Source: a virus
Lineage: Duplodnaviria > Caudoviricetes
Virus record (IMG/VR): IMGVR_UViG_2884152688_000003
Coordinates: 32,001 to 96,000 of that record
Direction: 5' to 3' (one strand)
Length of the DNA stretch: 64,000 bases
How positions within the stretch are numbered: the stretch's first letter is position 1; each line of letters opens with the position of its first letter. The notes under the pieces were generated by a model that did no database searches, was not told where the DNA came from, and saw nothing but the letters and a program-made list of their open reading frames with translations. A program made the translations under genes and the position numbers. Shown here piece by piece: positions 7,724 to 50,430 of the stretch.

Positions 7724-7739
7724 AAAGTAGGTGAACCTC

Positions 7740-9070: not shown

Positions 9071-9112
9071 TAAATGCTTTCAAAGGGAGGGGCGTGCTCC
9101 TTCCCCAGATTT

Positions 9113-9188
9113 GGATTAGTAGCTCAGTTGGTAGAGCATTCGGCTGTTAACCGAAGGGTCACAGGTTCGAGTCCTGTCTTTTCCGCCA
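9113..9188 (+). tRNA. tRNA-Asn (GTT)
   Basis: 76-nt cloverleaf: TAGCTCAGTTGGTAGAGC D arm, TTCGG-CTGTTAA-CCGAA anticodon arm, GGTTCGAGTCC T arm, encoded CCA. Two U-U mismatches in the acceptor stem. Confidence 0.92.
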
Positions 9189-21335: not shown

Positions 21336-22209
21336 GAGTAAATTAATGACTGGACAAGATATAGACTTGTCTCAATATGGATTAGGAGTCATAAAACAGC
21401 CAAGCTTAAAAGAACTATTAGAATTGCCAATCAAAGAATCTGATATAACATCTACTTTCATAATGATTGAAACTTTCTACGAAAAAATGACTGGGTTATC
21501 ACCGAGTGCAGACTTATATAAATTAGATTGTTTGAGTATGGTAAATGAAGCTGTGGCTCAAATGGATTCAGAGGAATACAAAAGAGAAGTCCAAACAAGG
21601 TATAATGATGTATTTTTTAAAAGAGAAATAAGGTACACTTTTTTAGAAAAATTATTCTTGCTACTAAGTTGTTTTTTTGATTGCAATATAAAGGACATAG
21701 ATATCAAAGAAGATCCTTTTGAGGACAGAAAAGATTTCAAGGGAATAGTTATCCTAATAAATAAAGGGGACTCTGAAGATGATAAAATTCTTATAGATAA
21801 AGAAAATTTCAACATACTTTTAAAGGTTATTTTTAAAATATTAGATATAGATATCAAGTCTATACTAAGTAGAACAGAAGAAGATGATGAGTGGGTAGAA
21901 AACAATGGGAGTGCAAAAGAAAGAAAATATATAGAAATATTTAAAAGAAAAGAGCGAGAAAGAAAGAAAAAAGAAGTATTACATATATGTGATTATATCA
22001 ATGTTGTAGTAAATGATTCAGGTAGAGATTATAAAGAAGTAGCCAATTGGACGTATTACCAATTGATTAATACGTTTAAAGCTAGTTTCTTGAAAGATAG
22101 ACATGATATGGATGTTAAGATGTTTACTTCTGGGAATTACAAGATAGATCCAAAGGAAATGTTGGATTGGAAAAAAGAAATTAAGATAAATATAGATGAG
22201 ACAATTTAG
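21325..22209 (+). CDS. Tail-module protein (possible assembly chaperone)
   Basis: Acidic ORF ending in the WTYYQL motif, adjacent to the tail tube gene. Confidence 0.45.
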   Translation: MMIESKLMTGQDIDLSQYGLGVIKQPSLKELLELPIKESDITSTFIMIETFYEKMTGLSPSADLYKLDCLSMVNEAVAQMDSEEYKREVQTRYNDVFFKREIRYTFLEKLFLLLSCFFDCNIKDIDIKEDPFEDRKDFKGIVILINKGDSEDDKILIDKENFNILLKVIFKILDIDIKSILSRTEEDDEWVENNGSAKERKYIEIFKRKERERKKKEVLHICDYINVVVNDSGRDYKEVANWTYYQLINTFKASFLKDRHDMDVKMFTSGNYKIDPKEMLDWKKEIKINIDETI

Positions 22210-22256
22210 TCTTGTCTTTTTTTATATAAAAATAATGAAGGATAGGTGATTAATTA

Positions 22257-23066
22257 ATGGCATTCGCAATAAAAGACGCTGCCGATATGGGAGTATTTAA
22301 TAAAGAGACAGGAGTACCGTTGTTTTATACTGAAGCAGCGAACTCTTTTGAGTTAAAAATTGAATCAGAAGAAGTTTTTGCAAAGGCAAAAGGCGTAGAT
22401 ACAATAGGGTTTAACAGTGGTAAAAAAGTAAGTGGGAAAGCGGAGTTTGAAGTTATCCAGTTTCCACAGCTTTCTATAATTCTTGCAAGTGATGTTGCTG
22501 AAAAGAATAATTATGCAGTAGCAAAAAAACTTAAAGCAAAATTGGGAGCCGATAAGAAGGTAATACTAAAAGGAGAGTCTCCTTTAGAGGGTTCTATGAT
22601 GGCTATGCTACTAAAAGATGATGGTGCCGAACTAGGAGAAAAAGTTGAGGTAACTGTTACAAAAGTAGGTGATGATACAGAAGTTGTGTTCCCAGATACT
22701 GTAAAAGAGGGTCAGTTTGTAATACTTTTTTATCAGAATGTAGCACAAAAAGTGAAGGTAATAAAGGTTACTTCAGAAGGAGATACACCAAACCTTAGAA
22801 TTGAAGCAATAGTTTCAGCTAAAATGCAGAATGGTAAAAAGATGGCTTTAAATCTAGTTATAAATAATGCGAGAGCAAAGAATAATGCAGAACTTACATT
22901 CTCTACAGAGAATCCATCTAAGTTCCCAATGGAATTTGACTGTTTCCCAGATGAATTAGGAGAAATTTTTGAATTGACATTTATTGAAGATGATGGAACA
23001 ACAGATTTAGAAGAAAAGGTGAAAAACCTAGATCCTTCTATAAAACTTGATAATGAAGCTGCTTAG
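22257..23066 (+). CDS. Major tail (tube) protein
   Basis: MAFAIKDAAD... and ELTFSTENPSKFPMEFDC pattern, flanked by terminator-like hairpins. Confidence 0.65.
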   Translation: MAFAIKDAADMGVFNKETGVPLFYTEAANSFELKIESEEVFAKAKGVDTIGFNSGKKVSGKAEFEVIQFPQLSIILASDVAEKNNYAVAKKLKAKLGADKKVILKGESPLEGSMMAMLLKDDGAELGEKVEVTVTKVGDDTEVVFPDTVKEGQFVILFYQNVAQKVKVIKVTSEGDTPNLRIEAIVSAKMQNGKKMALNLVINNARAKNNAELTFSTENPSKFPMEFDCFPDELGEIFELTFIEDDGTTDLEEKVKNLDPSIKLDNEAA

Positions 23067-23076
23067 TATTGATATA

Positions 23077-23105
23077 CCCCACCAATTGGTGGGGTTATTT
23101 TTTTT
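23077..23105 (+). terminator. Intrinsic terminator
   Basis: ACCCCACC-aatt-GGTGGGGT followed by a T tract. Confidence 0.8.
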
Positions 23106-23185
23106 AAGTCAATTTAAAATTTTATTTAAATTCAATAAGATTTATTGGCTTTAAATATTTTTTTAAAAGAAAGGAGACAATAAAA

Positions 23186-23962
23186 TTGGTCTTTCATTCG
23201 GACAGATTTATATTCGATGGAGTCAATTCGGAGAGCATAGGGATAATGTTAGTGACTGTCGGTGAAAATGACGTGCTAATGGACTATGGGATTCCATTTG
23301 AATACAAGTTAAAAGTAGAAAGTAGTTTTGGAGATAATCCTTTTTATACCAAAGAGGAGTCTCCACCAGAACCAATCACTTTAGATTTTTGCTTAACAGA
23401 GAATAGACAAGCAATAAAGTGGAGTGATGAGTTGGAAAAAGAAATAATTAACTGGTTAACACAAGATAAATTTTGTGAATTCATTTCTTATGATAATCCA
23501 GAATTAGTTTACTATTTTAGAGCAACAAAGGTTACAAAGAAAATGACACATCAAAAAAAAGGTATTTTATCAGTAACCTTTCAACCATATTACAAACATC
23601 CAGTGAAAAAGATAAGAAAAGATTTGTTGGTCGAGGGAGAAAGATTTACAAATATAAACAATGAGTGTATTTCAAGAGAATATGTATATCCAATGCTAGA
23701 AATTGAGGCAAACGCAAGTGGAAACGTAGAAATTTTAAATGAATCAATAGAAGATTCTGAACCTCTTGTAGTAAAAGGGCTAGAGGACGGAGAAAAAATA
23801 TTTATCGACAATCAACTGTTTATAGTAATAGATGAAAATGATGAAAATAAGTTCCATAAAGTAAACAGACATTGGTTGAAACTAAAAAAGGGAACAAACA
23901 AAATAAAAATCAACGGAAATGTAAATATAAAAATTAAATGTAATTTAGAGATAAAGATATAA
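23186..23962 (+). CDS. Distal tail (Dit-like) protein
   Basis: FIFDGVNSESIGI N-terminus and WLKLKKGTNKIKING C-terminus are characteristic of Dit proteins. Confidence 0.75.
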   Translation: MVFHSDRFIFDGVNSESIGIMLVTVGENDVLMDYGIPFEYKLKVESSFGDNPFYTKEESPPEPITLDFCLTENRQAIKWSDELEKEIINWLTQDKFCEFISYDNPELVYYFRATKVTKKMTHQKKGILSVTFQPYYKHPVKKIRKDLLVEGERFTNINNECISREYVYPMLEIEANASGNVEILNESIEDSEPLVVKGLEDGEKIFIDNQLFIVIDENDENKFHKVNRHWLKLKKGTNKIKINGNVNIKIKCNLEIKI

Positions 23963-23972
23963 GGAGAAAATT

Positions 23973-24425
23973 ATGAGAACAATAAAATTAAGTGAACTGC
24001 CTAAGAAGGAAAAATATAGAGATATAATTTCGGTTACTATGGATGACGGTGAAATAGATTATATATACGTTTTGAATCCAACAGGCGAAATAGAAAAAGA
24101 ACTTTTAGAGGTATGCTCTGAGGTTATATTTGAAAAATGTGAACTTGACGATTCTGAATTGATGAAATTATTCATAGAAAAACTTACAAATATAGAAGTT
24201 GAATACGGATTTCAGGAAGTTCCAGAGTCCGATGCTTTAGCAAGAGTATATACTACACTAAAAACTATTTACTTTGAAATGATAGATTTTTGCTACAGAT
24301 TTTATATTTGCGAAGAATCAGCAATGAAGGCAGAAGAAAGTAGAGAAAAATTATTAAAAGAAATCAGTGCGAAAGAAGAAAAAGAAGATAAAGAAATTAT
24401 AAACGCCATAAAAGAAGATAAATAG
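23973..24425 (+). CDS. Probable tail assembly chaperone
   Basis: Acidic 150-aa ORF upstream of the tape measure gene. Confidence 0.4.
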   Translation: MRTIKLSELPKKEKYRDIISVTMDDGEIDYIYVLNPTGEIEKELLEVCSEVIFEKCELDDSELMKLFIEKLTNIEVEYGFQEVPESDALARVYTTLKTIYFEMIDFCYRFYICEESAMKAEESREKLLKEISAKEEKEDKEIINAIKEDK

Positions 24426-24440
24426 TTATGAGGTGAAAAT

Positions 24441-24754
24441 ATGGTCTTTGGATCGATTGAAGAGTGTGAAGCTTATATAAAGAGTTGTATGACACAAACA
24501 ACCCCAGTTATGGCACAAAAAACTCAAGAAGAAGGAAAGAACATAATATCCGGACAGGTTGGTGGAATAACAGGAAGTTTGGCAAATTCAGTGTTTATAT
24601 TGGGAACATCAGCAAATTCAATGGAGGTAGGAATAGAGGATAGAGGTGGTGGAAATGATTATTCATGGACATCACAGGTTTATAGAACTCATTTCTTTCC
24701 GATGTACGGATTAGAGAAAGGCCACACATGGAATAGAGGTGCCACAACAATTAT
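24441..24754 (+). CDS. Tail-module protein (tail completion/HK97 gp10-like), exon 1
   Basis: Joins in frame to 26910-26994 after removal of IStron 1, giving 132 aa (...RGATTI-M-ITWESW...). Confidence 0.8.
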
Positions 24755-24814
24755 AGGTTTTTCAAGCGAGAAAACCCACGATTTTAATCGTGTGGATGAA
24801 AGCTTGTCAAATAC

Positions 24815-25210
24815 ACTGTAAGCATATAGAGAAATCTGTATGTAGTGAATACATAAAACTCATGTATTCCAATTAAGAAACTGAATTGCTGGAAATTCGT
24901 AAAGCTAACTTAACTACAACGCAAAGATAATACAAAACTTAAACGTGAATGTGGCGAGAGCAGAAAAAATAAGTTAGATGGCATAAGGTTAAACCCTAAG
25001 TGCTTTAAAATTGAAAATCAGCATCCAAGCCTAGAAATAGGAAGGTTCAACGACTATTCCTCTTGAGGGAAGTACATCACAAGCCATTGGTGATGGAAGT
25101 GGTTTCGCCTTAGCACGTAATGGTGAAGGATAAGATATAGTCTGTGCTTGCACGAAAGTGTAAGAAGTTCATAAGAGAACTGTATAGATAGTAGCGAATC
25201 TATATGAACA
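24815..25210 (+). ncRNA. Group I intron ribozyme core of IStron 1
   Basis: P AATTGCTGGAAA, Q AATCAGCA, R GTTCAACGACTA and S AAGATATAGTCT in the correct order. Confidence 0.92.
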
Positions 25211-25299
25211 AACTTCACACAAAAAAAAGAAAGTATAATAGTTTTAATATTGTGTATAAAACTATTGATTTCGTACACTAAATAGCATATAATAAAATT

Positions 25300-25701
25300 A
25301 TGAATAATGAATACAGAGACTCAAAAACAACTGTTTCGTTAATCAATTATCATTTTGTTTTTTGTCCAAGATATCGAAGGAAAATATTTGAAGATTCCAA
25401 AGTAGATATTAGATTTAAATCAGTCATTCAAGAAATATGTATTGAGAATGATTGGGATATTATTGCAATAGAGACAGATAAAGAGCATTGCCATTTATTC
25501 ATAAATGTACAACCTATATATTCTCCTTCTGAAATAATGAAGATAATAAAAGGTATTACATCACGAAAATTAAGGCAAGAATTTGAACATTTAAGCAAAA
25601 TGCCAAGTGTTTGGACAAGGTCATTTTTTGTTTCAACTGCTGGTGATGTATCTAGTAAAATAATTAAAAGATATGTTGAAAATCAAAGAACAAGATACTG
25701 A
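25300..25701 (+). CDS. tnpA: IS200-type Y1 HUH transposase
   Basis: YHFVFCPRYRR, HUH motif EHCH, catalytic Tyr in KRYVENQ. Confidence 0.95.
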   Translation: MNNEYRDSKTTVSLINYHFVFCPRYRRKIFEDSKVDIRFKSVIQEICIENDWDIIAIETDKEHCHLFINVQPIYSPSEIMKIIKGITSRKLRQEFEHLSKMPSVWTRSFFVSTAGDVSSKIIKRYVENQRTRY

Positions 25702-25725
25702 TTATACGTTAAGGAGGTGACAGAA

Positions 25726-26844
25726 ATGAAAAAGGCACATAAGATACGTATTTACCCAAATACTAAACAACAGATACAATTTCAAAAAACATTTGGATGC
25801 GTAAGATTTTACTGGAATTTTATTTTAAACCAAACTCAAACAAATTATAAAATGAAACAAGAAGATGAAATGTATTTAGAAGACAAGACAACATATGCAA
25901 TTCTTAAAAAACAAGAAGAATATTCATGGTTAAAAGAAGTTGAAGCTCAACCATTAAGCCAAGTGACTATGGATTTAAGAAAAGCATACAAAAATACATT
26001 TAAATCTAAGTTTGGGCTCCCTAAATTCAAGAGTAAAAAATACTCTAAAAAATCTTATAGGACAGCAGCTGGAATGAAGGTGAATGAAAACTACTGTTAT
26101 ATATCTAGAGTTGGGTGGGTAAAAATGGCGGAGAAGTTACGATTTAAAGGAAAATTAATGAATGTAACAATCAGTCAATCTAAATCTGGAAAATACTTTG
26201 CAGCATTCTTAGTAGAAACTGAAAATGTTGAACTAGAACCAGTCGAAAATAAAATTGGCTTAGATTTAGGTCTTTCTCATTTCTGTGTAGCTTCCACAGG
26301 AGAAAAAATAGATAACAAAAAATTCTATCATTCTCTTGAAAAGCGACTAATAATTGAACAAAGAAAACTTTCAAAACGTTTAGAGATAGCCAAAAAACAT
26401 AATCGTAAATTAGATGATTGTAAAAACTATCAAAAACAAAAAAAGAAAGTTGCTTTAATACATGAAAAGATATTCAATCAAAGAAATAATTTTTTACATC
26501 AAATTTCTTCAAGAATAACTGATGAAAACCAAGTCATTTGTATAGAAGATTTAAACGTAAAAAACATGATTAAAGATCATAAATTAGCGAAATCAATAGC
26601 CGATGTATCGTGGAGTGAATTCGTAAGACAATTAGAGTACAAGTCTAAATGGAAAGGAAGAAAACTTGTTAAGGTAGATAGATTCTTCCCTAGTTCTCAA
26701 ATTTGTTCTAAATGTGGACACAATGATGGCAAGAAAGAGTTAACCATAAGAGAATGGACTTGTTCTAATTGCAACACGAATCACGATAGAGATATCAATG
26801 CGAGCATAAATATTAAAACCGAAGGACTTTCGGGGTTAGCTTAG
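25726..26844 (+). CDS. tnpB: RNA-guided endonuclease TnpB
   Basis: GLDLG, IEDL and DRDINA catalytic motifs plus zinc finger. AAGGAGG RBS before ATG 25726. Confidence 0.95.
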
Positions 26845-26909
26845 TAAATTTACTATCAATAGATGGTATTACCTAAGAACCCCACGATTTTAATCGTGTG
26901 GAGTGTCAG

Positions 26910-26994
26910 GATTACATGGGAATCATGGGCTTCTGGAAACTTAGATAAGATATTCTTAGAAACAATGAGTGGTCTAGGAGTACCTATAGGATAA
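26910..26994 (+). CDS. Tail-module protein, exon 2
   Basis: G-ATT ACA TGG ... GGA TAA continues the exon 1 frame and stops just before the tape measure RBS. Confidence 0.8.
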
Positions 26995-27009
26995 GGAAGG
27001 AGTGATTTT

Positions 27010-29169
27010 TTGGCTGAGTTTAGAATAAAAAGTACATTAGATCTCAGTACAGATGAAGCAAAGAGCAAAATGAAAGCTCTTGAAAATGAAAAGATTAAAG
27101 CTAAATTAGAACTAGATGCCGAAAGTAGTAAGAAAGCCCTTAACAGTTTAGATAAAGCGTCAAAGCAATCTCAACAGAATAGGGTCAAAGATGCAAAGAA
27201 GGCAGAAAATGAATTAGCTGGGATAGATAGAAAAAAGCTAAATGAATATAAAAGATTAGGGCAGGAAAAAGCTTCTTTAAGTAATAAGTTTGCTAAAGCT
27301 GAAAGCGATAATGCTAGAAAGAATTTAGATAAAAATATTAGAGATAGACAACGACAGATGTCTGGACTATACAAACAAATGTCTAGTGAACAGCAAAAAA
27401 TAGCAAAACAGATGGACACTCAAATGTTCGGTGCTAAATCAGGCAATGGCTTACTGAAGGCATTTGGACGAATAGATAAAGATGCTTTAAAGATAAAAAA
27501 TACTATCAGAAGTCTAGATGGGGATATAACTAAAACCTTAGGGAATAAGCTATCTAAACAAATGGATGGATTTTATAAAGGATTAGATAAAAAACCTGTC
27601 AATAACGCTACGTATGAAAACGCTAGAAGGACGATGAATAGTTATCAACAAAGTGCTAAAGCTTTGAAAGAAATTTCCTCTCTAGAAAAATCATATGGAA
27701 GTAGACAAACGGCTGTAAACAATAGACTGGGTGGTTTAAGTAATCTAGTAACGCAAAAAGCTGGGGCTGAACTAAATAAAAATTTAAGCCAATCTTTTTC
27801 ACAAATTAGAGGAAAAGATATAACTTCAACAGCTAGTAAAATGAAAGTTTTTGGAACTGAATTAAACAGGACAGCTACAGCAAGTAAACAATTACAAGGA
27901 TTAGATAAGACAATAAATAGATTGTCTGGATTAGAAAGTGGTTTAAAACCTAAAACTATTAATGGTCTTAGACAAGGGATAGTCGATTTATCTAAATCAC
28001 CTTCATTAGGAACAGCAAGTTTTGATTCCGAATTAAAAAAAGTAAATACGCAAATGACAGTAGCGAGCCGATATCAAGGCCGAATGGCAAAACTTAAAGA
28101 TGATTTTAAGATGTCCATGTTCGGAACCTCAATGGGATATTTGGCTGGCTCTTTTTTACGTTCTCAAGTAACTGGAGCAATCCAAACTTTTAAAGATTTA
28201 GATGCTTCAATGACAGATATAAAGAAGGTAGCAAATCCTAGAGATGTAGCGACAGAATCTCAAACAAAAGCTATTAGAAAACAAGCTATCCAAATAGCGA
28301 AAGATGTTGGGATGGCTTCATCTGATGTCCAATCATCAATAGCTACAGCATTACAATCTGGTATGGGCGGTATGAAAGAGTCTATGGCAGTTGCAAGAAA
28401 ATCTATGATATTAGCTAACGTTGGTGATATGGATAAAGTTGAGGCAACAAAAGCTGTCAATACCATAGTTAAATCTTTCAACTTAGACCCTTTAGGGAAA
28501 CAAAGAGTTAACGTAAAGGGAATGTCAAAAGAAACAACACAATTAGCTAATGCAATGGACTTGCTTAACTATGCAGGTAATAATTATGCTATATCTTCAG
28601 CAGGTGTAGCCGAGGCATTACAGCGTGGTGGTGGAGTTATGAAAGCATATGGAATGAACTTAGCCGATTCTGTTGCAATGATTACAGCCACAAATGAACC
28701 AATACAGAATCCAGAAAAAGTTGGTAATGGTTTAAAATCTATTGCTATTAATATGGCTGGTATTACAACCAGTGCCAAAGATGGGACACTCCATGCGAAT
28801 AAAACAGCTAAGGCACTTCAAGAAATTGCTGGCGTTGATATATATAAAGATAAGGCAAAAGGATCTCTTAAATCCCAAGTTGAACTTTTAGATGAAGTTC
28901 AGAAAAAATGGGGTGGATTAAACGATGCTCAAAGAGCCGGTCTATCTGAGTCTATAGCAGGTAAACATAGAGCGGATATATTCCAAGCTTTAATGGGGAA
29001 TTACGAAACATTTAAGAAACTTCGTAATGAGTTTAGCCAAGGAGACCACTTTGGTTCAGCTGAAGCCGAAAACGAAAAATATGTAAACTCATTAGCTGGT
29101 AAGACAAACAAGCTAAAAGAGACCATGACTTCCATAGGAACTGGTCTTATAAATGGGAAGGCTGTTTAT
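27010..29169 (+). CDS. Tape measure protein, exon 1
   Basis: TP901-type core (DLDASMTDIKKV, NYAGNNYAIS, VGNGLKSI), ending at ...GKAVY immediately before IStron 2. Confidence 0.92.
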
Positions 29170-29239
29170 TAGGAACGTAGTGATATAAACGAGAATCCTC
29201 GTGATTTTAATCATGAGATGAATCGTAAAATAGATACGT

Positions 29240-29630
29240 AAATAGTAAGCATATAGAGAAATCTGTATGTAGAGGTGAGAGAAATTCATCCAATACTACT
29301 TGAATTGCTGGAAACCCCTAAAGCTAGTAAAACTACAACATAGAGATGAAATATACTCAAGTGTGAATGTTGCGAAAGCAGAAAAAAATTACTAGATAAC
29401 ATAAGGTTAAATCCTAAGTGTTCTACAATAATGGGCAATCAGCAGGTAAGCTCCGAATAGGAGAAACTTCAACGACTATTCCTCTTGAGGGAAGTACACA
29501 CAAGCGTGTGGAAGTGGGTAGACCTTAACACGTAATGGTGAAGGATAAGATATAGTCTGTGCTTGCACGAAAGTGTAAGAAGTTCATAAGAGAACTGTAT
29601 AGATAGTAGCGAATCTATATGAACGAGACC
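29240..29630 (+). ncRNA. Group I intron ribozyme core of IStron 2
   Basis: P AATTGCTGGAAA, Q AATCAGCAG, R TTCAACGACTA, S AAGATATAGTCT. Confidence 0.92.
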
Positions 29631-29742
29631 TCAAAAATGATAAAGTACAAGGTTCAAGGCATTAGTCCAGAAAACTTTTACAAAAATATGGGCTTATTCA
29701 GTAAAATGCGGTACAATTGCCTTATAGAAAAGAGGTGAGAAA

Positions 29743-30993
29743 ATGTATTTAACTGTAAAGCAACAAGTAAAACAATTATCTAAGGAAGACTATAAAAATA
29801 TAAGAGAACTATCTCATGTAGCTAAAAACTTAGCAAATGAAGCTATATATAATATTCGTCAGTATTATTTTCAAGAAGGAGAATATTTGAACTACGAAAA
29901 AAATTATGTATTACTAAAAGATAGTGAAAACTATAAAAAACTAAATTCTAATATGGCACAACAAATATTAAAAGAAGTAGATGGTTCTTTTAAGTCCTTT
30001 TTCAGTCTTATTAAATTAGCTAAGAAAGGAAAGTATTCATTTAGAAATATTAAATTGCCAAAATATCTTCCAAAAGATGGATTTACGACACTTATTATAG
30101 GATTTGTTAGATTAAAGGGAAATCTTTTAACTATACCATATTCTAATCAATTTAAAAAAGAACATTCAACTGTTACTATAAAAATCCCACAAATTCTTTT
30201 AGATAAAAAGATAAAGGAGATAAGAATTATACCTAAAGCTAAAGCTAGGTTCTTTGAGATTCAATATACTTATGAAGTTGAGAAAGAACAAAGAAATTTA
30301 GACAAAAACAAAGCACTAGCAATAGATTTAGGAATTAATAATTTAGCTACTTGTGTGGTATCAACAGGTGAATCCTTCATAGTTGATGGGAGAAGGTTAA
30401 AATCTATAAATCAAGGATATAATAAGCAAAATGCAATATTACAAAGCATTAAAGATAATCAAAAATATGGGAAAAGACCTACAAATAGACAATATAGAAT
30501 TGCTGAAAAAAGAAATAATAAAGTCAATGATTATATGTCTAAAACAGCAAGGATAATAATTAATTATTGCCTTAAAAATAATATTGGAAAAATAGTTTGT
30601 GGGTATAATGAAACATTTCAAAGAAACAGTAAACTTGGCAGAATAAACAATCAAAACTTTACAAATATACCATTTGGTAAACTAAGAGAAAAGTTGGAGT
30701 ATCTATGTGAATTATATGGTATAGAGTTTAAAAAACAAGAAGAAAGTTATACTTCTAAAGCAAGTTTCTTTGATAATGATGAAATCCCAACATATAACAA
30801 TGATAATCCAAAAGAATATGTATTCTCTGGCAAAAGAGTAAAAAGAGGATTGTATAAAACAAAAAAAGGATTAATCTTAAATGCAGATGTAAATGGAGCG
30901 TTAAACATATTAAAGAAAAGTAACGTTGTACCCTTAGAAGGGTTATACACTAGAGGCGAACTGGACACGCCAATACGTATCAAAGTAGTTTAA
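29743..30993 (+). CDS. tnpB: RNA-guided endonuclease TnpB, IS1341-like type without Cys zinc finger
   Basis: AIDLGINN, QEESYTSK and NADVNGA motifs. VCGYN replaces the usual IEDL. Confidence 0.92.
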   Translation: MYLTVKQQVKQLSKEDYKNIRELSHVAKNLANEAIYNIRQYYFQEGEYLNYEKNYVLLKDSENYKKLNSNMAQQILKEVDGSFKSFFSLIKLAKKGKYSFRNIKLPKYLPKDGFTTLIIGFVRLKGNLLTIPYSNQFKKEHSTVTIKIPQILLDKKIKEIRIIPKAKARFFEIQYTYEVEKEQRNLDKNKALAIDLGINNLATCVVSTGESFIVDGRRLKSINQGYNKQNAILQSIKDNQKYGKRPTNRQYRIAEKRNNKVNDYMSKTARIIINYCLKNNIGKIVCGYNETFQRNSKLGRINNQNFTNIPFGKLREKLEYLCELYGIEFKKQEESYTSKASFFDNDEIPTYNNDNPKEYVFSGKRVKRGLYKTKKGLILNADVNGALNILKKSNVVPLEGLYTRGELDTPIRIKVV

Positions 30994-31064
30994 GCTATGG
31001 AGAACGTAAATAGGTTTAATTAATAAACCTTAGAACCCTGTGATTTTAATCATAGGAGGTTCAG

Positions 31065-34000
31065 GGTGGGTTAGATGCTCTTAATGCTTTTGCTGGAGGT
31101 TTAGATAAATTAGTAGGTTTTGCAGAAAAATATAATCTTCAACTACCTGTTATGGCATCAGGGCTAGGGATGTTAAAAAGTTCATTTAATGGGTTTAAGA
31201 CACCTATAAAAACGTGGGAAGAATTACTTGGGAACGATACTCCTAAGAAACATTCTAAAGCTACAAACAAACCGAAAATAACAGCAGATTCTTTCTCTAA
31301 ACCTAGAGATATAAAAGAACAAACAAATGCAGTAAATACATTGACTAAAGCTAATGATAAAAATACTCAATCTATAAGATCTAATGTCAAGGCAAGTGAA
31401 AGAACACCAGAACAAGCAAAAGCTGTTAGAAAAGAATTAGCATCTCAATTTAAGACTGTTGATTCATTAGGTAAAGCAAAAGAGAAAGATTTAGATATAA
31501 CTAAAAAAGGGATTTCAGCTAATATTAAGGCAGCCGAAAGTGCTAAACAACACAGAAAAGGGATATCTGGACAAGTCCAAGAACTTAAGTCTTTAAATAA
31601 AGTTAGTTCACAATCGTCCAAAATAGGTATAGGAGATAAAATCAGTGGAGTAACAAAAGGAATAGGTGGGGTAGCTAAAAATCTATTATCTGGTGTTGGA
31701 GGAATGTTAGCAACAGGTGCTTTATATGGTGGAGCTACTTTAGCTATATCTAAAGGATTAGAATATGGGTATAAAGGATACCAAAAGTTAACTAATGGTG
31801 TGAACATGTCTAGGCAAGCCCACATAGATAGAAGAAATGCCTTAGTAGGTGAGAACAAAGCTATTTCTTCAAATATAAACTTTTTACAAAACAATAAAAA
31901 AGAATATGATTCTTTAAGAAATAAACAAAAGCAGTTATCAAACACGCCATATGAGAATATGTCAGAATCGCAAAAGGCTGATATGGACAAATTAAAGGCA
32001 TATAATGAAAAAATTGCCGATATGTTCCCTAATATGGTTAAAGGTTATGATAAAGATGGAAACCCAATTGTGTCCATGAGTGCTAACGCAGATGGTCTGA
32101 TTAAAAGACTAAAAGTGGCACAAGAGTCAAAAGAAAGATTAATAAAACAAGAAAATCAAAGCATAGCAGACAAGAACTTAACTGAAATGACTAGGGGCGA
32201 GTCTATAGGTGATAGCATAATCGGTCGCATAAACAATAAAAACAAAAGCGTTTCAGATTATTACAAAAATCTAGCAAAACAAAGCATGAAAGATTATGCT
32301 TTTACAGATATGTCTAAGTTTTTACCAAAAAACAAAACACACAGCGATGCTTTGTTAGGTGATGATTCTTGGAAAAAAAGACAGGCAAAATGGAAAGAGG
32401 GCTACAATAGTTACAAAAAAGAAGTAGACAAAACCTATGGGGAACTAGCTAATGACATAGCTAAATATGACAAAGCTAACGCCCATAATGCATCAGTAGG
32501 GCAACAAAGCTTACTCGATTCTGGGAGATTTAAAAACTTAAAAAATTCTGCAAAAGAAGCAATCTCCGAAATGGGCTCTATGCTTACATGGGGTAAAATA
32601 AGCACGACAGATGGTGTAAGCTTTTTAAATAAATTAGGAGAAAATGCCGACCCGTCAAAAATACAAAATTGGACAAAACAATTAAATAAATTAAACGAAG
32701 CGTATAAGATGGATAAAGATAGGCAAACTTATCAGGCTGGCATAAAGAGCTTGGCTGATGAAATGGCTAAATCTACAAACGGAAGAGCAAAAGACTATAT
32801 CAAAATGCTTGAAGATGTTGATAGGGGATACGCTAATTTAGAAGAAAAAAGAACCGCAGATTATATGAAGAAGAAAGGTACTAAGTTTAGTGACTTAATG
32901 GAAGGTGGATCTAAAGGATCTTATGCTGACAAAGTTCAACAAGAAATAAGGGACATAATGTCAGCTGAACAACTTCTTATGAATGCAAGAACAACCGCCC
33001 AAAAGAAAAATGCTTTAAGTGAAATTGCTTCATATGATGGTTTAGGTTCTGGCGTTCAAAATTGGGCAAAAGCACTAAGTAATCAAAATGGTATTTCAGA
33101 TGCTAGTATGTCCGCTTTCTCTAAGGTGCTAGGAGCGATAGAGAATTATGACCCTAAAAATAAAAATGCCGCAAAAGACCTAAGTAATATAAAGAAAGCA
33201 CTTAATACTGGTGATATAAAAAATGGAATGAGTATCGCTGACGTACTCTCTCTCACTAAGGACGAATTAGAAGCGATAAGGAATATTGACCCTAATGGAA
33301 ATGCCGGTAATATATTTGAAAAAATGTTAACGGGTGGAGAACAGCTTAAAAATAGCTTGAAAAATGTTCAAGATTTTTATTCTAAAGGTGATAATAAGAT
33401 TGAACTAGAGGCTGAGGTTGCATTAAAGATAGCGGATGCTAACTTAAATACAAAGGAACTTGAAGGTCTAGAAAAAGCTGTCCAAAAAATAGAAGATAGT
33501 AAAAAGAATATGTTTCGAGGTGAAGGAGCAAAATATTTTTCAGGAACAAATGGGGATGTGAATAAGGCATATGAGAATATGTCTAAGACTGATGAGGGTG
33601 TTAAGTTTGCTATCCGCTCTGGTGCAAGTGAAGAAGTTAATAAGTATCGTGAGGGGGTTTCACGTTTAAGCGATAGCTATAACCAACTTAATAGTGAAAT
33701 GAAAAAAAGCATAGATTCTTTAAGTGGAAAGGAATTTAGTTCATATTTAGATACTTTTTCTAAACTTGACGATAAAATGAAATCGTTTGTAAAGAATAAT
33801 AATATAGTTTCAGAAAGTGGTATCAAGGCTGCAAGTGGTCTTTATGATATTGGTAAAAGTACCGGTCTTTCAGATATTCAATCTGAAACAATGGTAAAAG
33901 TAGTGATAAGTACAGTGGGGGAAGAAGGGGCGTCTAGAGTTAAATCATATTTAGACAGTTTGCCAGCTGAAAAAAGAGTAAATGTAACAGCACAGCTAAG

Positions 34001-37000
34001 TGGTGAAAATGGTGAAGGATTCGCACAAGGGTATGACGCTTTAATGCAACATTTCAATGGTGACACTAAACTTGTCCAAAAAGTAGCTTTTGAATTAGAA
34101 AATCAAGGACAAGGGGATCTTATTTCACAACTGAGACCGGACAATTTAAAGGAAACTTTAAAGGTAAAAGCTGAGATAGATATAGATAATATGGATGGTT
34201 TTTCGGGAAAAGAACTTCCTCCAAAAAAACAAAGAGTAGAGATTGAAGAAAGCGAAACAAGTGGTTCAAAAGAATTACCACCAAAGAAACAGAAGGTTAC
34301 ACCCGAAATTGCAACAGACGCTTTAAATGGTGGATTTGCAGGACTAAACGCTCACTTGCCACCTATTAAACAAAAGGTAGAAATTGAACAACCAGCACCA
34401 CCAGCTCCAATTGAGGCTGCACCATACATATTCCAAAAACCAGTAATTCCTCAACCAGACCCACCTCAAGTCGGGCCTATAGCGGCACCACAAGTTGAAA
34501 CGCCAGTTACACCTGAACCAACTCTGCCGGCAATGCCAGCTTTACCGGCGCCACAAATGCAGGCACCTACAATGCCAGTACCAATTATGCCAGTCTTACC
34601 TGTGTTCCCCGCTCCGATAGTAGGAACACCAATCATTCCAAAACCTACATTACCTAGTATGGGGACAATACCTGCACCAAAAATAGGTATGCCAACTGTG
34701 CCTAAACCATCTTTACCAAAGATGGATACTATAGCTGCACCAAAGGTTAATACACCTAAGGTTCCAGCACCAACAATGCCTAAAGTCGAACCAATAAAAA
34801 TAAGTATTCCTTCGGTAAAAGTCCCAGATGTAAAAGGGCAATTAGCTAAGATACCTAAAAGCACAACGGCTACAGTTAGGGTAATAGACAATGCATCGGG
34901 GCCGGCAAGAGCAGCTGCGGGTGCTGTTAGATCATTCCCTACTGGAACAAGAGTAGCGACATTAATTACAAAATATGTAACTCAAGGTTCACCAGGTGGT
35001 GGTGGAGGGAAAGGTGGAGGAAAGTCTCTTGATATTAAAAGAGATGAAATAGACTCTAAATTAGAAAAACTTAAAAAGTTAAAGAACTCTAATTATTTCA
35101 ATCTTAAAGATCTTTCCATCTTTAGAAAAAAGAATACTCAACTTAATCCTCTAGCAACAGCACCAGTAATGGGAGCAGTAGCAACAAGTGATGGTTCTAT
35201 GTCTACACCAATTGGTGGTTATATAGGTGGAACAGCTTCACCTATGGATGAAGACATCGTGTCTTTAGTTAATGAATTCAAGAATAGAACTCTCAAAGGA
35301 TTTGACTATAAAGGAATTACAGCTTTAGATAGACTGAGTTATTCCTTAAAGGAAATACAATTTGGATTAAAAGAAGATATTAATCTTCTTCATGAAATGG
35401 AAAGAGCAGTTAATAGAGTAAATAATTCTATTAAAAGAATAGACTTAAATATGCAAAGAGCTCGTGGCTCTGAAAAAGTGTCTATGCTTTTCCTTCAGAA
35501 CGACCAAATAAGAGAATCAATAAGACGTTCTCAAGCACATCGAGCGGCATTAGTAGTAGAAAGAGATGCATATAGAAATATGTTGAGGACTGAAGGGTTC
35601 AAATTTACACCAGACGGAACTCTGACAGCAAACTATTACGCTCAAATGGCTAAATATAAAGAGCGTGATTTAGCTATCGAAAAAGAATTAGAGAAGTTAA
35701 AAGATGGCAAAGGCGCTGATAGCAAGAGAAAGAAACTTGAAGAAGAAAAGAAAGAAATTGAAAGAAAAAGAAAAACACTTGATGAATACGAGAAAACAGT
35801 AGATAAAATTGTTGATGTGGATTATGGAATTAAAGAACATGAAGTGAAGATAGATAATAATGTTGATGAGGTTGAAAAATTAAGGATTTCTGCATGGAAA
35901 GAAAATTATGAGGCCGCAACAAAAATTATGGATTCTGCTATAAAAGCAATAAATAATTCACTAGATATATATTCTATTAAGTTTAAATATGCTTTTGGTA
36001 TGGATAGATTAAATATCTTAGACGCACAAACATCCAAATATAGAGAGATGAATACAGTTATCGAAAGTAATATTAATACCTTAAATAACTTAAAATCAAA
36101 TCTACAAGGACGTTTAGAAAAACATGGGTTTACTTTTAATGGAGATAACATCTCAAATTATCAGACACACATGGCACAGCTTAAAGATACTTCCACTCTA
36201 TATGAAGATATTAAAAGTTTAGCATCTCAATATTTCGACATTGTTGAAAGCAAAATTCCAGATTATAATAAGAAAATGGAAGAAATGAACCAAAAGGTTA
36301 AAGACAATGCGAAACAAAAGCTTGAAGACACTAAAACGATAGAAGATAAAATTACTAGCATGTTAAAGAAACAGGCTGATGAAAGAATAAAAGCTATCGA
36401 GAAGGAAAGTAAAGCTAGAGAAGATGCTATAAAGAAAAAGAAAGATGAATATAATGAGGCTAGAAAAGAAGCTGATTATCAAGATGATTACCAAAAGAAA
36501 TTAAAGGAAATTGAAAAACTTGAGAAAAAGCGTGATATATATACAAAAGATACTAGCCAAAAAGGGCAAAAAGAACTTCAAAAAATAAATGAAGAACTAG
36601 AAAAGAAAGTAGAAGAACTTCAGAAAAGCGTTGAAAAACACGTGGATGATAAAGTAAATAAGATATATGATGATGAGTCTAAAAGATTAGCTGATGAATT
36701 GAAAGAACTTAAAGAAAAAAGAGATGAGGAATATACTGACGCTGAATTATTGAAAAAAGCTCAAGAGGCTATACAATCGGGGCAATTTACTGATTGGGAT
36801 GGTAATGTGAAAGATCTTCAAACAGCGTTGATAGATTATATGAATGAGTTTGAAGGCGGATTATCAGCAACAGGAGCTTTAATTCAAGCAGAACTAATCG
36901 CCAAATTAAAGGTGGCTAATGATACAATAGCAAGTTTTAAGGAAAATCTCGACATACTTGGAGTAGGTGATTATAATTTAGGTGGTTACATACAGCATTC

Positions 37001-37175
37001 TAAATATAATGAGTTAGAAGATAGAAGAAAAGAATCTACCAACAACATTACCTATAACAAGTCTTTAGTAGAAATCCAAGGCAATGTAGATACTGGAACA
37101 TATGAGAAGATACTTGCTGAAGTTCAAAAATATATAAAACAGCACGAAAGAGATTTAAGAAGCAATATAAGATAA
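31065..37175 (+). CDS. Tape measure protein, exon 2
   Basis: GGT GGG TTA GAT... is open and in frame with ATG 31152. The spliced product is 720+29+2007 = 2756 aa. Confidence 0.9.
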   Translation, partial: GGLDALNAFAGGLDKLVGFAEKYNLQLPVMASGLGMLKSSFNGFKTPIKTWEELLGNDTPKKHSKATNKPKITADSFSKPRDIKEQTNAVNTLTKANDKNTQSIRSNVKASERTPEQAKAVRKELASQFKTVDSLGKAKEKDLDITKKGISANIKAAESAKQHRKGISGQVQELKSLNKVSSQSSKIGIGDKISGVTKGIGGVAKNLLSGVGGMLATGALYGGATLAISKGLEYGYKGYQKLTNGVNMSRQAHIDRRNALVGENKAISSNINFLQNNKKEYDSLRNKQKQLSNTPYENMSESQKADMDKLKAYNEKIADMFPNMVKGYDKDGNPIVSMSANADGLIKRLKVAQESKERLIKQENQSIADKNLTEMTRGESIGDSIIGRINNKNKSVSDYYKNLAKQSMKDYAFTDMSKFLPKNKTHSDALLGDDSWKKRQAKWKEGYNSYKKEVDKTYGELANDIAKYDKANAHNASVGQQSLLDSGRFKNLKNSAKEAISEMGSMLTWGKISTTDGVSFLNKLGENADPSKIQNWTKQLNKLNEAYKMDKDRQTYQAGIKSLADEMAKSTNGRAKDYIKMLEDVDRGYANLEEKRTADYMKKKGTKFSDLMEGGSKGSYADKVQQEIRDIMSAEQLLMNARTTAQKKNALSEIASYDGLGSGVQNWAKALSNQNGISDASMSAFSKVLGAIENYDPKNKNAAKDLSNIKKALNTGDIKNGMSIADVLSLTKDELEAIRNIDPNGNAGNIFEKMLTGGEQLKNSLKNVQDFYSKGDNKIELEAEVALKIADANLNTKELEGLEKAVQKIEDSKKNMFRGEGAKYFSGTNGDVNKAYENMSKTDEGVKFAIRSGASEEVNKYREGVSRLSDSYNQLNSEMKKSIDSLSGKEFSSYLDTFSKLDDKMKSFVKNNNIVSESGIKAASGLYDIGKSTGLSDIQSETMVKVVISTVGEEGASRVKSYLDSLPAEKRVNVTAQLSGENGEGFAQGYDALMQHFNGDTKLVQKVAFELENQGQGDLISQLRPDNLKETLKVKAEIDIDNMDGFSGKELPPKKQRVEIEESETSGSKELPPKKQKVTPEIATDALNGGFAGLNAHLPPIKQKVEIEQPAPPAPIEAAPYIFQKPVIPQPDPPQVGPIAAPQVETPVTPEPTLPAMPALPAPQMQAPTMPVPIMPVLPVFPAPIVGTPIIPKPTLPSMGTIPAPKIGMPTVPKPSLPKMDTIAAPKVNTPKVPAPTMPKVEPIKISIPSVKVPDVKGQLAKIPKSTTATVRVIDNASGPARAAAGAVRSFPTGTRVATLITKYVTQGSPGGGGGKGGGKSLDIKRDEIDSKLEKLKKLKNSNYFNLKDLSIFRKKNTQLNPLATAPVMGAVATSDGSMSTPIGGYIGGTASPMDEDIVSLVNEFKNRTLKGFDYKGITALDRLSYSLKEIQFGLKEDINLLHEMERAVNRVNNSIKRIDLNMQRARGSEKVSMLFLQNDQIRESIRRSQAHRAALVVERDAYRNMLRTEGFKFTPDGTLTANYYAQMAKYKERDLAIEKELEKLKDGKGADSKRKKLEEEKKEIERKRKTLDEYEKTVDKIVDVDYGIKEHEVKIDNNVDEVEKLRISAWKENYEAATKIMDSAIKAINNSLDIYSIKFKYAFGMDRLNILDAQTSKYREMNTVIESNINTLNNLKSNLQGRLEKHGFTFNGDNISNYQTHMAQLKDTSTLYEDIKSLASQYFDIVESKIPDYNKKMEEMNQKVKDNAKQKLEDTKTIEDKITSMLKKQADERIKAIEKESKAREDAIKKKKDEYNEARKEADYQDDYQKKLKEIEKLEKKRDIYTKDTSQKGQKELQKINEELEKKVEELQKSVEKHVDDKVNKIYDDESKRLADELKELKEKRDEEYTDAELLKKAQEAIQSGQFTDWDGNVKDLQTALIDYMNEFEGGLSATGALIQAELIAKLKVANDTIASFKENLDILGVGDYNLGGYIQHSKYNELEDRRKESTNNITYNKSLVEIQGNVDTGTYEKILAEVQKYIKQHERDLRSNIR

Positions 37176-37241
37176 CTCAATAGTAAAAAATAGAGCGAGG
37201 GTTAATGCCTTCGCTTTTTCTATTGGAAAGGAGGAACGATT

Positions 37242-38963
37242 ATAAAAAGAAATATCTACCTAGACTCAGCAAAAAATAAATATACCGTTCATTTATCAAC
37301 CATAAGCGGAAGATATTTAGGGCAAATTCCTTCAAATGCAATTACTGAGATATCTAGAAATGTGGGTGAACATTCTGTAATACAATTAAAGATACCTAAG
37401 TATTATTTAGATATTTTTAGTCAAACAGAGAAAATATATCCTCTTTTTAAAGAAATAAAAAATGAAAGAAGAATAATCTTGAATGAAAATGAAGTCTTTC
37501 TGATAAAATCGATTGAGACGCAAAATGAACAAGTCTTAGAATTAGAAGCAAAAACAAGTGAAATAAGACTTGCTGAAATAGATGTAGAATTAGAAGATTG
37601 TGGGCTATCTTTTTTTCAAGAAGATGAAGAAAGTGAAATATTAAGTTTAGATAAATACCTATATCAAGAATCTGGTTGGAAATTAGGCGAAGTCACAGAC
37701 TTGGTTAAATATGAACCAGGCACCGAAACCGAAAGAGTTAGATGGATAGAGAATGTAGAAAAGAAATGGTATGACTTTATCACAAAAGACTTATGTGAAA
37801 GTTTCGATTGCATGGTTTCTTTTGATTCGTGGAACAAGACAATTGACTTTTTTAAGGAAGAAGAATTGGTAGATGAAATAGGTTTATATCTTTCAAAAGA
37901 CAATTACATAAAATCATTGGAAAGAGAATATGATTCAGACAAAATTGTTACACGTTTAAAAGTTGTAGGAAATGATGAAATGGATATAATAGGTTCTGTT
38001 TGTACAGGTGAACCATACATAGAAGATTATACATATTTCCTTGAAAATGATGAGATGACGGAAGAATTAATAGAAGCTTTAAAAAAATACTATGAGATTG
38101 TAATTGAAAGAGAAAAGATATGGAAAAGATATGTTGATGAAAGAGTGAAAAAACTTGAAGAAAAAAGAATACTTGGTTCAGAACATATTGATCTAGAGGC
38201 TCAAATCACAGCATTAGAAGATATATTAGAAGAGTATGAAAGACCACCTGGTGAAGATAAAGTAAGGGCGGCTGAAATAATATCTAAGATAACAAAACTT
38301 AGAGATAGAAAATCTCTTGTAATAAGTTCCATAGAGTTCTTAGAGGAAGAACTAAAAGCTCTAGAAGGGTCTATAAATAATATAATAACTCTCTGCAAGA
38401 AACCAACAGCGACTGACAATGAAGGAAACCTTATTTTTACAAAAGAACTTTTAGAAGAATTAATGAACTATAACTACACAGAAATCTATAAAAATGATTC
38501 CTTTTTAACTGAAAATGTAGGTGAATTAATTGAATTAGCAAAGCGTAAGTTGAGAGAAAAAAGCTATCCAACGAGAAAGTGGGATATAGATGTTGTTAAT
38601 TTTTTAGAAAGATTGAATCCTTTAAATAGATTAAATTGGAATGGACAGATGTCTTTAGGTGATTTAGTCATTCTGTATGATAGGGAAAATGATACTGAAG
38701 AGTTTATATATTTTACTGGATATTCTCATAAAGTTAGGTCAAACGAGTTATCTATAAAATTATCTAATAAAAAAACAGTAAAAGAAGATGGTATAACTAT
38801 AGCTGATTACTTAACTCAGGCTAAAAACGCAATGAGGGCAATAGATGCTAAAAAATATTTATTTATTCAACAAAAATATAATAGGTTAAATCTTCCAAAG
38901 GAATATATACCTAAGTATAAAGAAAAAGAAAGAGATAGACCAGAGGGAATAATAATTGACTAA
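37242..38963 (+). CDS. Tail spike / Tal-like (prophage endopeptidase tail family) protein
   Basis: IVTRLKVVG...YIEDYTYF motif, follows the tape measure gene. Frame open from ATT/ATA 37239-37244 behind AAGGAGG. Confidence 0.75.
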   Translation: MKRNIYLDSAKNKYTVHLSTISGRYLGQIPSNAITEISRNVGEHSVIQLKIPKYYLDIFSQTEKIYPLFKEIKNERRIILNENEVFLIKSIETQNEQVLELEAKTSEIRLAEIDVELEDCGLSFFQEDEESEILSLDKYLYQESGWKLGEVTDLVKYEPGTETERVRWIENVEKKWYDFITKDLCESFDCMVSFDSWNKTIDFFKEEELVDEIGLYLSKDNYIKSLEREYDSDKIVTRLKVVGNDEMDIIGSVCTGEPYIEDYTYFLENDEMTEELIEALKKYYEIVIEREKIWKRYVDERVKKLEEKRILGSEHIDLEAQITALEDILEEYERPPGEDKVRAAEIISKITKLRDRKSLVISSIEFLEEELKALEGSINNIITLCKKPTATDNEGNLIFTKELLEELMNYNYTEIYKNDSFLTENVGELIELAKRKLREKSYPTRKWDIDVVNFLERLNPLNRLNWNGQMSLGDLVILYDRENDTEEFIYFTGYSHKVRSNELSIKLSNKKTVKEDGITIADYLTQAKNAMRAIDAKKYLFIQQKYNRLNLPKEYIPKYKEKERDRPEGIIID

Positions 38964-50290: not shown

Positions 50291-50430
50291 TGTCTAACCT
50301 CCTTTCGGAGAAATTGCCTTTTAGTGAGAAGGCTTCTTTAATTATATCATAAATAAAATTGTTTCAATTTACTAAATAAAATTATACTAGACACTATTAA
50401 GTGTCTTTTTTTTTATATAAAATTAGAAAG

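Follow-up and report, generated by a model that had tools for sequence, protein, structure and literature searches.

Elements with the anatomy of group A IStrons interrupt two adjacent tail genes of a phage of ~106 kb

RESULTS

Two adjacent tail genes are interrupted

The DNA considered here is a stretch of 64,000 nt (the window) from a phage of ~106 kb. It covers positions 32,001 to 96,000 of the record IMGVR_UViG_2884152688_000003 and corresponds to C12:32001-96000, C12 being a 106,300-nt contig of the assembly G000. In the open reading frame (ORF) list of 22000..34000 the forward-strand tail module is broken twice (Table 1). The first break falls in gene 1, a small conserved phage gene that has a 150-aa gene on one side and the tape measure gene on the other, and the second in the tape measure gene itself. 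At each break lies an element in which a group I ribozyme precedes genes of the IS200/IS605 family of insertion sequences (IS), and both elements are in the sense orientation relative to the host gene, as splicing requires. A preliminary description of this locus had recognized two adjacent tail-module genes, each interrupted by an intron with a TnpB gene, and this view holds, for removal of the elements restores frames that match uninterrupted homologues.

Table 1. Features of the two interrupted genes and of their elements (window coordinates)
Feature	Position	Strand	Remarks
126-aa ORF	24441..24821	+	Unspliced gene 1; followed by 133-aa and 375-aa ORFs
720-aa ORF	27010..29172	+	Followed by 416-aa ORF, then 2007-aa ORF 31152..37175
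Gene 1 exon 1	24441..24754	+	104 codons + AT; PHROG 11057 match, function unknown
Target ATTAT	24750..24754	+	5' splice site, TnpA target and predicted transposon-adjacent motif (TAM) coincide
IStron 1	24755..26909	+	2155 nt, autonomous type: group I ribozyme + tnpA + tnpB
IStron 1 left-end subterminal hairpin	24775..24795	+	Same 21 nt again at right end
IStron 1 ribozyme core, P2 to P9.2	24810..25209	+	P7 strands 25052..25056, 25138..25142
IStron 1 internal guide GTAAG	24818..24822	+	Predicted to pair with TTAT of 5' exon (P1; U.G at splice site)
tnpA	25300..25701	+	133-aa Y1 (HUH) transposase; Pfam Y1_Tnp 1e-37, full profile; H-C-H and RYVENQ motifs
tnpB1	25717..26844	+	375 aa, ISDra2-like, DRDXN type; HTH_OrfB_IS605, OrfB_IS605, Cas12f1-like_TNB
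Predicted omega-RNA scaffold, TnpB1	26780..26909	+	Three stem-loops, last = right-end hairpin
IStron 1 right-end hairpin	26881..26901	+	Terminal TCAG 26906..26909
Gene 1 exon 2	26910..26994	+	Restores conserved C-terminus ...GLGVPIG
Predicted guide 1	26910..26925	+	First 16 nt of gene 1 exon 2; position by analogy with IS605 TnpB
Tape measure exon 1	27010..29169	+	Exactly 720 codons; PhageMin_Tail domain (Pfam); TAG immediately after
Target TTTAT	29165..29169	+	Last bases of tape measure exon 1
IStron 2	29170..31064	+	1895 nt, non-autonomous: group I ribozyme + tnpB, no tnpA
IStron 2 left-end hairpin	29198..29217	+	
IStron 2 internal guide GTAAG	29245..29249	+	Ribozyme core 29237..29624
tnpB2	29743..30993	+	416 aa, NADXN type, no zinc finger; OrfB_IS605 1e-29, TNB 1.7e-10
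Predicted omega-RNA scaffold, TnpB2	30915..31064	+	Three stem-loops ending in right-end hairpin
IStron 2 right-end hairpin	31037..31056	+	Terminal TCAG 31061..31064
Tape measure exon 2	31065..37175	+	2036 codons, open throughout, in frame with 2007-aa ORF
Predicted guide 2	31065..31080	+	First 16 nt of tape measure exon 2

Joining at the element ends regenerates both host genes

Both genes can be regenerated in silico by joining the exons at the ends of the elements. In gene 1 the first base of exon 2, G at 26910, turns the final AT of exon 1 into an ATG codon; 27 further codons and a stop at 26992..26994 follow, which yields a product of 132 aa. A word-index protein search with exon 1 returned three proteins from four candidates, namely the unspliced ORF itself and two homologues without an interruption, 139 and 127 aa long. 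Both homologues contain the junction motif I-M and end in ...SLGVPIG or ...HGIPIS, a terminus like that of exon 2 and unlike the read-through tail of the unspliced frame. An uninterrupted gene 1 lies directly 5' of the tape measure gene at four more loci (L048, L049, L050 and L051), and the exon-2-like C-terminus with the I-M junction is found in the gene 1 homologues P0004, P0005, L048, L049 and L051.

The joined tape measure exons encode 2756 aa with a single terminal stop. The 75.9-kb viral contig L051 carries a single tape measure gene of 2670 aa that aligns with residues 1-1687 of the joined product, across the junction 720/721. At 10 of 14 more distant tape measure loci (29-36% identity) the alignment likewise spans the junction, and at the other four, L032 among them, it ends 1-11 residues short of it. 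Two candidate cases of an interruption in other genomes were rejected. At L032/L033 the alignments end where the junction would be, with a 10-mer resembling P7 2 kb further downstream; the L032 locus is one open frame and gave no RNA family match. In G002, where contig breaks had raised the same suspicion, the tape measure gene is continuous through the junction, and the gene resembling tnpB2 in that genome belongs to an ordinary IS with different ends. The tape measure protein of the phage is unusually long. Within its second exon, at 34000..35250, the G+C content reaches 45% with negative GC skew, in coincidence with a long proline-rich repetitive stretch of the protein (...PAPPAPIEAAPY...PKVNTPKVPAPTMPK...).

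Element boundaries are fixed by independent copies

Group A IStrons are characterized, in a 2014 survey by Tourasse (PMC4227781), by insertion after TTGAT, ATTAT or TTTAT and by a 3' end TCAG. Both elements display this insertion motif and terminus, with IS200/IS605 genes 3' of the ribozyme (Pfam Y1_Tnp, OrfB_IS605 and Cas12f1-like_TNB). The 3' terminus reads ...GTGTCAG at 26909 in element 1 and ...GGTTCAG at 31064 in element 2. A hairpin with the loop ATTTTAAT sits close to either end of both elements, and in element 1 the left and right ends share a 25-nt repeat with 96% identity.

An independent copy of the element 1 type, complete with tnpA and tnpB, was found in OR847180.1. It is 76.6% identical over 2169 nt and its homology spans window positions 24751 to 26910, which confirms the boundaries of element 1; the target there is CTTAT and the internal guide GTAAG. 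Copies of the element 2 type in other genomes of the family have the common terminus ...GGGAGGTTCAG, with complete divergence beyond, and their homology ends directly after GGAGGTTCAG. The element ends are thus fixed by the loss of similarity between independent copies. OR847180.1 (L094) is a 4865-nt wastewater viral contig made up mostly of the IStron; it is labelled 'UNVERIFIED_ORG Listeria phage', a host label that looks doubtful.

A conserved group I ribozyme whose guide follows the target

The ribozyme cores of the two elements are 80% identical to each other and 78-85% identical, over the 10 matches listed, to an element present in multiple copies in the 4.1-Mb genome G033, which belongs to the same family. 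We aligned 14 ribozyme sequences: those of elements 1 and 2, three from IStron copies in G033 and G020, and nine from relatives that are more distant. RNAalifold folded them into a structure of 80 pairs, 39 of which show compensatory changes. When the P7 pseudoknot was added (85 pairs), 98.1% were paired, as against 27.7-41.4% when the partners were slid by 1-3 columns; changes on both sides were seen in 39 pairs versus 4-14 in the slid controls. On four of five covariation measures none of 500 shuffles matched the observed value, and the five P7 pairs are invariant across all 14 sequences. The helices are arranged in the order P3-P4/5-P6-P7-P7.1-P7.2-P3'-P8-P7'-P9 (GAAA loop) with two hairpins after, an order that we take to fit subgroup IA2, the helix names being our own assignment. 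A distant-mode search located a related stretch in 228 phage records, many of them of Staphylococcus and other large phages, and one of these records has a feature 'Group I catalytic intron' at the place of the match. The 39 compensatory pairs, the invariant P7 and the homology to phage introns identify the structure as a group I (IA2) ribozyme.

The internal guide of the ribozyme changes together with the target. Copies inserted after TTGAT carry GTCAG just 5' of P2 (five G033 loci examined, G020 and the Clostridioides phage), and copies inserted after xTTAT carry GTAAG (elements 1 and 2, L076 and OR847180.1). At position -3 a G-C pair is replaced by U-A, and the U.G at the splice site is kept. 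This covariation supports P1 and the exact 5' splice sites and indicates that the ribozyme has tracked the target specificity of the transposon. The last base of either element is G, the base needed at a group I 3' splice site. The unspliced gene 1 frame continues for 22 codons into element 1, through the left-end hairpin, and meets a TAA stop at 24819..24821 inside the guide GTAAG; since this frame runs into the internal guide, ribosomes entering element 1 could disturb P1. In element 2 the stop TAG follows immediately after the splice site.

Free-standing relatives of the ribozyme, ~67-71% identical, are present in several genera of the family (L007, L008, L009, L011, L014, L015 and L022). 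All seven lie in AT-rich intergenic regions with no left-end hairpin and no tnp genes nearby and start with a conserved ...AGAGGTAA...AGCCTCGTATGTAGAG leader, and for three of the loci Rfam gave no named family. These relatives may be group I ribozymes that stand alone or have a regulatory role.

Two very different TnpB proteins

The tnpA, tnpB1 and tnpB2 ORFs are all full length and free of stops. TnpB1 aligns with ISDra2 TnpB (8h1j) over residues 5-371 (E 1e-70), and the alignment places the RuvC-I Asp (GLDLG), the RuvC-II Glu (ICIEDL), the RuvC-III Asp (HDRDIN) and a zinc finger CSKC...CSNC. Judged by its sequence, TnpB1 is a typical TnpB with a canonical active site. TnpB2 shares 24-27% identity with TnpB1 over partial alignments of 245 and 89 residues, and a sequence search of the PDB gave a marginal match. 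Its family is very large: an E-value cutoff of 1e-3 admits 5417 representatives, and one of 1e-30 admits 1139. In an alignment of 63 sequences (the query and 62 near-full-length representatives from 150 listed), D195 (RuvC-I), D382 (NADVN, RuvC-III) and E334 (QEESYTS) are each conserved in 62. The preliminary description had stated that both nucleases have their catalytic residues; this is fully true of TnpB1 (D/E/D), and for TnpB2 it stands for the RuvC-I and RuvC-III Asp and fails at the RuvC-II Glu, where a Gly is found, the Cys4 motif being absent as well.

An AlphaFold2 model of TnpB2 (predicted local distance difference test score, pLDDT, 94.4; predicted template modelling score, pTM, 0.88) has G287 as the last residue region of strand 281-288, and in it E334 immediately follows strand 328-333. 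Foldseek matched the model to AsCas12f, ISFba1 TnpB and ISDra2 TnpB with E values of 1e-13 to 1e-19, and also to Fanzor2, all at TM 0.6-0.7, so that the predicted fold of TnpB2 is that of TnpB/Cas12f. Altae-Tran et al. describe 'derived' TnpBs of the NADXN type with a Glu-to-Gly rearrangement and an alternative Glu (PMC10691335), and the features of TnpB2 fit this group as it is presented there, with E334 as the candidate alternative Glu. A TnpB2-like gene, 54-55% identical and with an open frame of 452 aa, exists in all eight genomes of genus g20 (L059-L065 and L077), at one place per genome at that identity. The five of these loci that were tested by blastn have no adjacent ribozyme and no matching right end; the gene could be an immobilised or recruited TnpB.

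3' ends and predicted guides

For both nucleases the predicted omega-RNA scaffold consists of three stem-loops up to the right end (Table 1), which is the layout of IStron omega-RNAs given in PMC10690162. The 3' RNA of six element-2-type copies shares 29 pairs, eight of them compensatory and some within the end of the ORF, and similarity stops at TCAG. The last ~35 nt are common to CdISt1-type and TnpB2-type elements, and a TnpB2-type gene is combined with a related ribozyme in five distinct places among the 29 loci examined. These five copies show that one ribozyme/end scaffold carries TnpBs of two clades, and that element 2 is a member of a lineage that already exists, not an isolated mosaic.

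Guides had been proposed to lie just past the right ends. Both strings quoted in that proposal occur once each in the window, at the positions of guides 1 and 2 in Table 1 (0 matches in 100 shuffles), and these 16 nt occupy the place where the guide of an IS605-type omega-RNA is expected. The accompanying claim that the TAM matches the insertion motif agrees with the sequence too: (A/T)TTAT sits where the TAM of an empty allele would be, and we predict that it would act as such, with TCAG in this place at occupied sites. When one mismatch is allowed, each guide matches its own occupied site alone in the whole assembly. As these matches are preceded by TCAG and not by the predicted TAM TTAT, occupied sites would be spared by TnpB.

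A search for intron-less targets

Relatives with empty sites were sought in several collections. The tape measure segment yielded 13 loci from 19 stretches among viral contigs (29-36% identity), none near enough for the guide, and one locus from 57 stretches among genome contigs, which is not close enough to serve as a target. The gene 1 alignment gave two loci from 204 among metagenome contigs and two from 45 among viral contigs, none of them a guide target. Matches were present in 11 of 112 family genomes including G000, the best at 69%, and none was close enough as a target. Megablast of 22000..38000 against phages matched the IStron parts alone, in three records. The intron-less relatives thus obtained share 38-69% protein identity. 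Their gene 1 site reads ATCAT followed by 7 of 16 matched guide positions in L051 and L048, and in L049 ATTAT is kept with unrelated sequence downstream; the tape measure site in L051, L050 and the same-genus G002 is ...GCAAAG|AGTGGG..., with no TTAT. Because these sites match neither the guides nor, for the most part, the predicted TAM, there is no natural target among the relatives found, and a near-identical sister phage or an excised copy of the same phage is needed.

The phage and its surroundings

C12 starts and ends with the same 127 nt, suggesting that it is a phage-like replicon, circular or with terminal redundancy and with no host flanks, in a bacterial isolate assembly. C12 encodes a terminase, a portal, a Dit-like protein, tail proteins, a DNA ligase, a C5 DNA methylase, the anaerobic ribonucleotide reductase NrdD, a subtilase and two tyrosine recombinases (50401..51465 and 52434..53579). 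In the whole 2.15-Mb assembly the ribozyme occurs in two places, elements 1 and 2, and each element is present as a single copy. TnpB2 is encoded once and TnpB1-like proteins twice, all three on C12. The remaining gene belongs to a third IS200/IS605 element, without an intron, at 7100..9110 of the window, which lies intergenically just 5' of a tRNA gene (9113..9185). It comprises tnpA (7319..7723) and a tnpB (7731..8882) 52% identical to TnpB1, and its right end is seemingly ...GTAGTTCAC, as in the ordinary IS around the TnpB2-like gene of G002 (L055). A scan of 23500..31500 for promoters and terminators stayed at the level of shuffles (36 versus 35.5 and 3 versus 2.8, respectively), so that separate transcription within this interval cannot be judged. 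A search for sequencing runs that contain 24000..32000 listed none.

A public, unannotated 113-kb Clostridioides phage, CP067352.1, has gene content in common with C12 at 26-48% protein identity. At 57215-69621 (L081) it harbours a CdISt1-type IStron at ~5955..7850 of the locus, with TTGAT, GTCAG, a 369-aa TnpB and the end GGAGGTTCAG. This IStron splits a homologue of the terminase large subunit into ORFs 5166..5954 and 7872..8858; the terminase gene of C12 is uninterrupted.

DISCUSSION

Based on these observations, we consider it likely that the two tail genes have been entered by two independently acquired group A IStrons, each an IA2 intron joined to an IS200/IS605 element, which follow an ordinary IStron life cycle. 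The steps that we infer from sequence, namely splicing, transposition, guide use, TAM recognition and cleavage, would run as follows. The late transcript would run through both elements. Each ribozyme would pair its guide GTAAG with the exon TTAT and splice exactly at the transposon ends, which would allow the full-length 132-aa tail-module protein and the 2756-aa tape measure protein to be made. TnpA could move element 1 in single-stranded form, by excision and by insertion at xTTAT sites, and would probably act on element 2 in trans as well. Each TnpB would bind an omega-RNA composed of the last ~130 nt of its element and ~16 nt of exon 2, and the complex would cut those copies of the phage genome in which TTAT is joined to exon 2, that is, the empty site. 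Recombination with the many occupied genome copies would then restore the element after the cut. The elements would be primarily selfish passengers, kept harmless by splicing, and any influence on competing phages or on the yield of tails would arise as a by-product.

Several observations weigh against this model. Rfam returned no Intron_gpI match at gathering score in the whole window, and at E up to 10 in 24000..32000 the matches were only at chance level. The same search also misses the CdISt1-type control loci L004 and L081, so that the negative result is uninformative for this intron class, and the RNA structure was therefore tested directly by alignment. The fifth covariation measure, which counts further pair types, did no better than shuffles (298/500), and no P10 pairing with either 3' exon was seen by eye. 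The fold of the 3' region is only weakly better than that of shuffles for TnpB1 (z -1.41) and for TnpB2 (z -2.54). In the TnpB2 family the place of the canonical RuvC-II Glu is taken by Gly287 in 63 of 63 members, the neighbouring E290 is kept in 7 of 63, and 60 of 63 have at most one Cys in the region of the Cys4 zinc finger. The activity of the rearranged bacterial TnpBs was untested as of PMC10691335.

What alternative roles could such elements play? All three TnpB genes and both intron copies of the 2.15-Mb assembly are on the phage contig, and the targets are essential late genes, as would suit an adaptive arrangement in which the TnpB/omega-RNA pairs serve as weapons and homing drives against intron-less sister phages and TnpB at the 3' end tunes the amount of tail protein. 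The preliminary description had leaned this way, and its premise that splicing and omega-RNA formation compete for the same 3' end is published for CboIStron, an IS607-type IStron (PMC10690162). Competition between phages through an intron endonuclease has also been reported for a protein endonuclease (PMC11620839), and the CdISt1-type IStron in the terminase gene of the related 113-kb phage implies that this phage lineage meets IStrons repeatedly. However, no near-identical intron-less phage was found, the relatives L051, L048, L050 and G002 differing at the sites. Phage records often contain TnpB genes (the TnpB1 type in 271 records, the TnpB2 type in 34), so that their presence alone is no argument for a weapon, and ordinary restorative homing accounts for the same anatomy. 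As empty alleles are seen only in diverged relatives, homing, sister-phage exclusion and tuning of tail output are all extrapolated from published IStron work. The last two are biologically sensible, though nothing in our analysis supports them, and we regard the adaptive arrangement as possible but rather unlikely.

The opposite view, that the elements are relics reduced to splicing, would have TnpB2 inactive, element 2 immobile and TnpB1 perhaps silent, the elements persisting because they are harmless. Element 2 without tnpA, a TnpB2 without the canonical Glu and zinc finger and the single copy of each element in the assembly would agree with it, and so would strain 630, in which none of 8 CdiIStrons codes for a full TnpA (PMC10690162). 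Decay is nevertheless hard to reconcile with three full-length ORFs lacking stops, with intact tnpA and tnpB and matching hairpins at both ends of element 1, or with eight compensatory pairs in the element-2-type 3' RNA; moreover, Gly287 (63/63) and E334 (62/63) are family-wide and not a private lesion. We therefore find this view distinctly unlikely. Highly improbable, finally, is that the elements do not splice and leave the phage tail-defective. The missing Rfam match would be in keeping with such disruptive insertions, but in both elements the internal guide matches the target and the orientation is the sense one needed for splicing, the P7 strands are identical in 14 of 14 aligned sequences, and both downstream exons are intact, including an open frame of 2036 codons.

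What are the implications of two IStrons with ordinary life cycles in one tail module? The acceptance of TnpBs of two major clades by a single chassis of ribozyme and ends suggests that nucleases may be swapped as modules on it. A bolder proposal, to which we give little credence at present, is that a lineage of large phages uses IStron TnpB/omega-RNA as programmable homing drives between phage genomes that replicate together, sister genomes with an empty site in a tail gene or terminase gene being cut and then converted or lost. Competition of omega-RNA formation with splicing for the 3' end would then tie the nuclease load to how much tape measure protein is supplied. To our knowledge, TnpB-driven homing has so far been shown with plasmids and chromosomes; it should be strongest and easiest to measure in a phage burst, because many genome copies recombine there. 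IStrons are the only case known to us in which the same few nucleotides have to serve a ribozyme, a transposase and an RNA-guided nuclease. The phage is a compact natural test bed: of its two neighbouring IStrons one is autonomous and the other is not, both lie in essential late genes, their highly dissimilar TnpBs sit on one ribozyme/end scaffold, and all TnpBs of the assembly are on the phage. Unannotated public phage records such as CP067352.1 contain IStrons as well, whose host genes will be reported as truncated or split by gene callers.

IStrons in phages have been known since the 2014 survey, which lists the C. botulinum phages c-st and D-1873, with group B elements (PMC4227781). A literature search that covered papers without their supplementary tables found no published description of IStrons in the tail genes of such a phage. 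The concept that IStrons or TnpBs are used against co-infecting phages is already in print and thus not new: 'transposon non-restorative homing', directed at coinfected phages or plasmids, is among the theoretical cases of a 2026 review (PMC13565253).

Among known systems the closest is CdISt1 with the other group A IStrons, with which the elements share a 5' IA2-type ribozyme with IS200/IS605 genes behind, subterminal hairpins and the lack of a target duplication. CdISt1 was reportedly described by Braun (2000) and by Hasselmayer (2004). Over its 3' part, tnpB1 has 73% DNA identity to the tnpB of the multi-copy element of G033. CdISt1 uses TTGAT/GTCAG, whereas the elements described here use xTTAT/GTAAG. 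Unlike CdISt1, they are phage-borne and lie in tail genes, element 1 keeps a complete tnpA, and in element 2 a TnpB of a different major clade is combined with this ribozyme and these ends (24% identity to TnpB1, NADXN, no zinc finger). TnpB1 resembles the ISDra2 TnpB/omega-RNA complex (PDB 8h1j and 8exa) in its D/E/D residues and zinc finger, and its guide is likewise expected directly after the right end. It departs from ISDra2 in being embedded in an intron and in its predicted TTAT-like TAM. The TAM of ISDra2 is TTGAT.

CboIStron of C. botulinum, of the IS607 family, is also organized so that intron, TnpB and omega-RNA share the 3' end and TAM, transposase target and 5' splice site coincide, and it too is found on a phage-like extrachromosomal replicon (PMC10690162). 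It differs in its serine-recombinase TnpA, a TGGG TAM and a G instead of U at the splice site, and its activities were measured, whereas those of the phage elements are predicted. Phage group I introns with homing endonucleases, such as the Twort-like introns of Staphylococcus phages and T4 td, have a related ribozyme and likewise reside in genes essential to the phage. For this class it is established that co-infecting phages undergo homing and marker exclusion (PMC13565253). Those introns rely on a protein-only homing endonuclease, while the elements in the tail genes of this phage combine a transposase with an RNA-guided nuclease.

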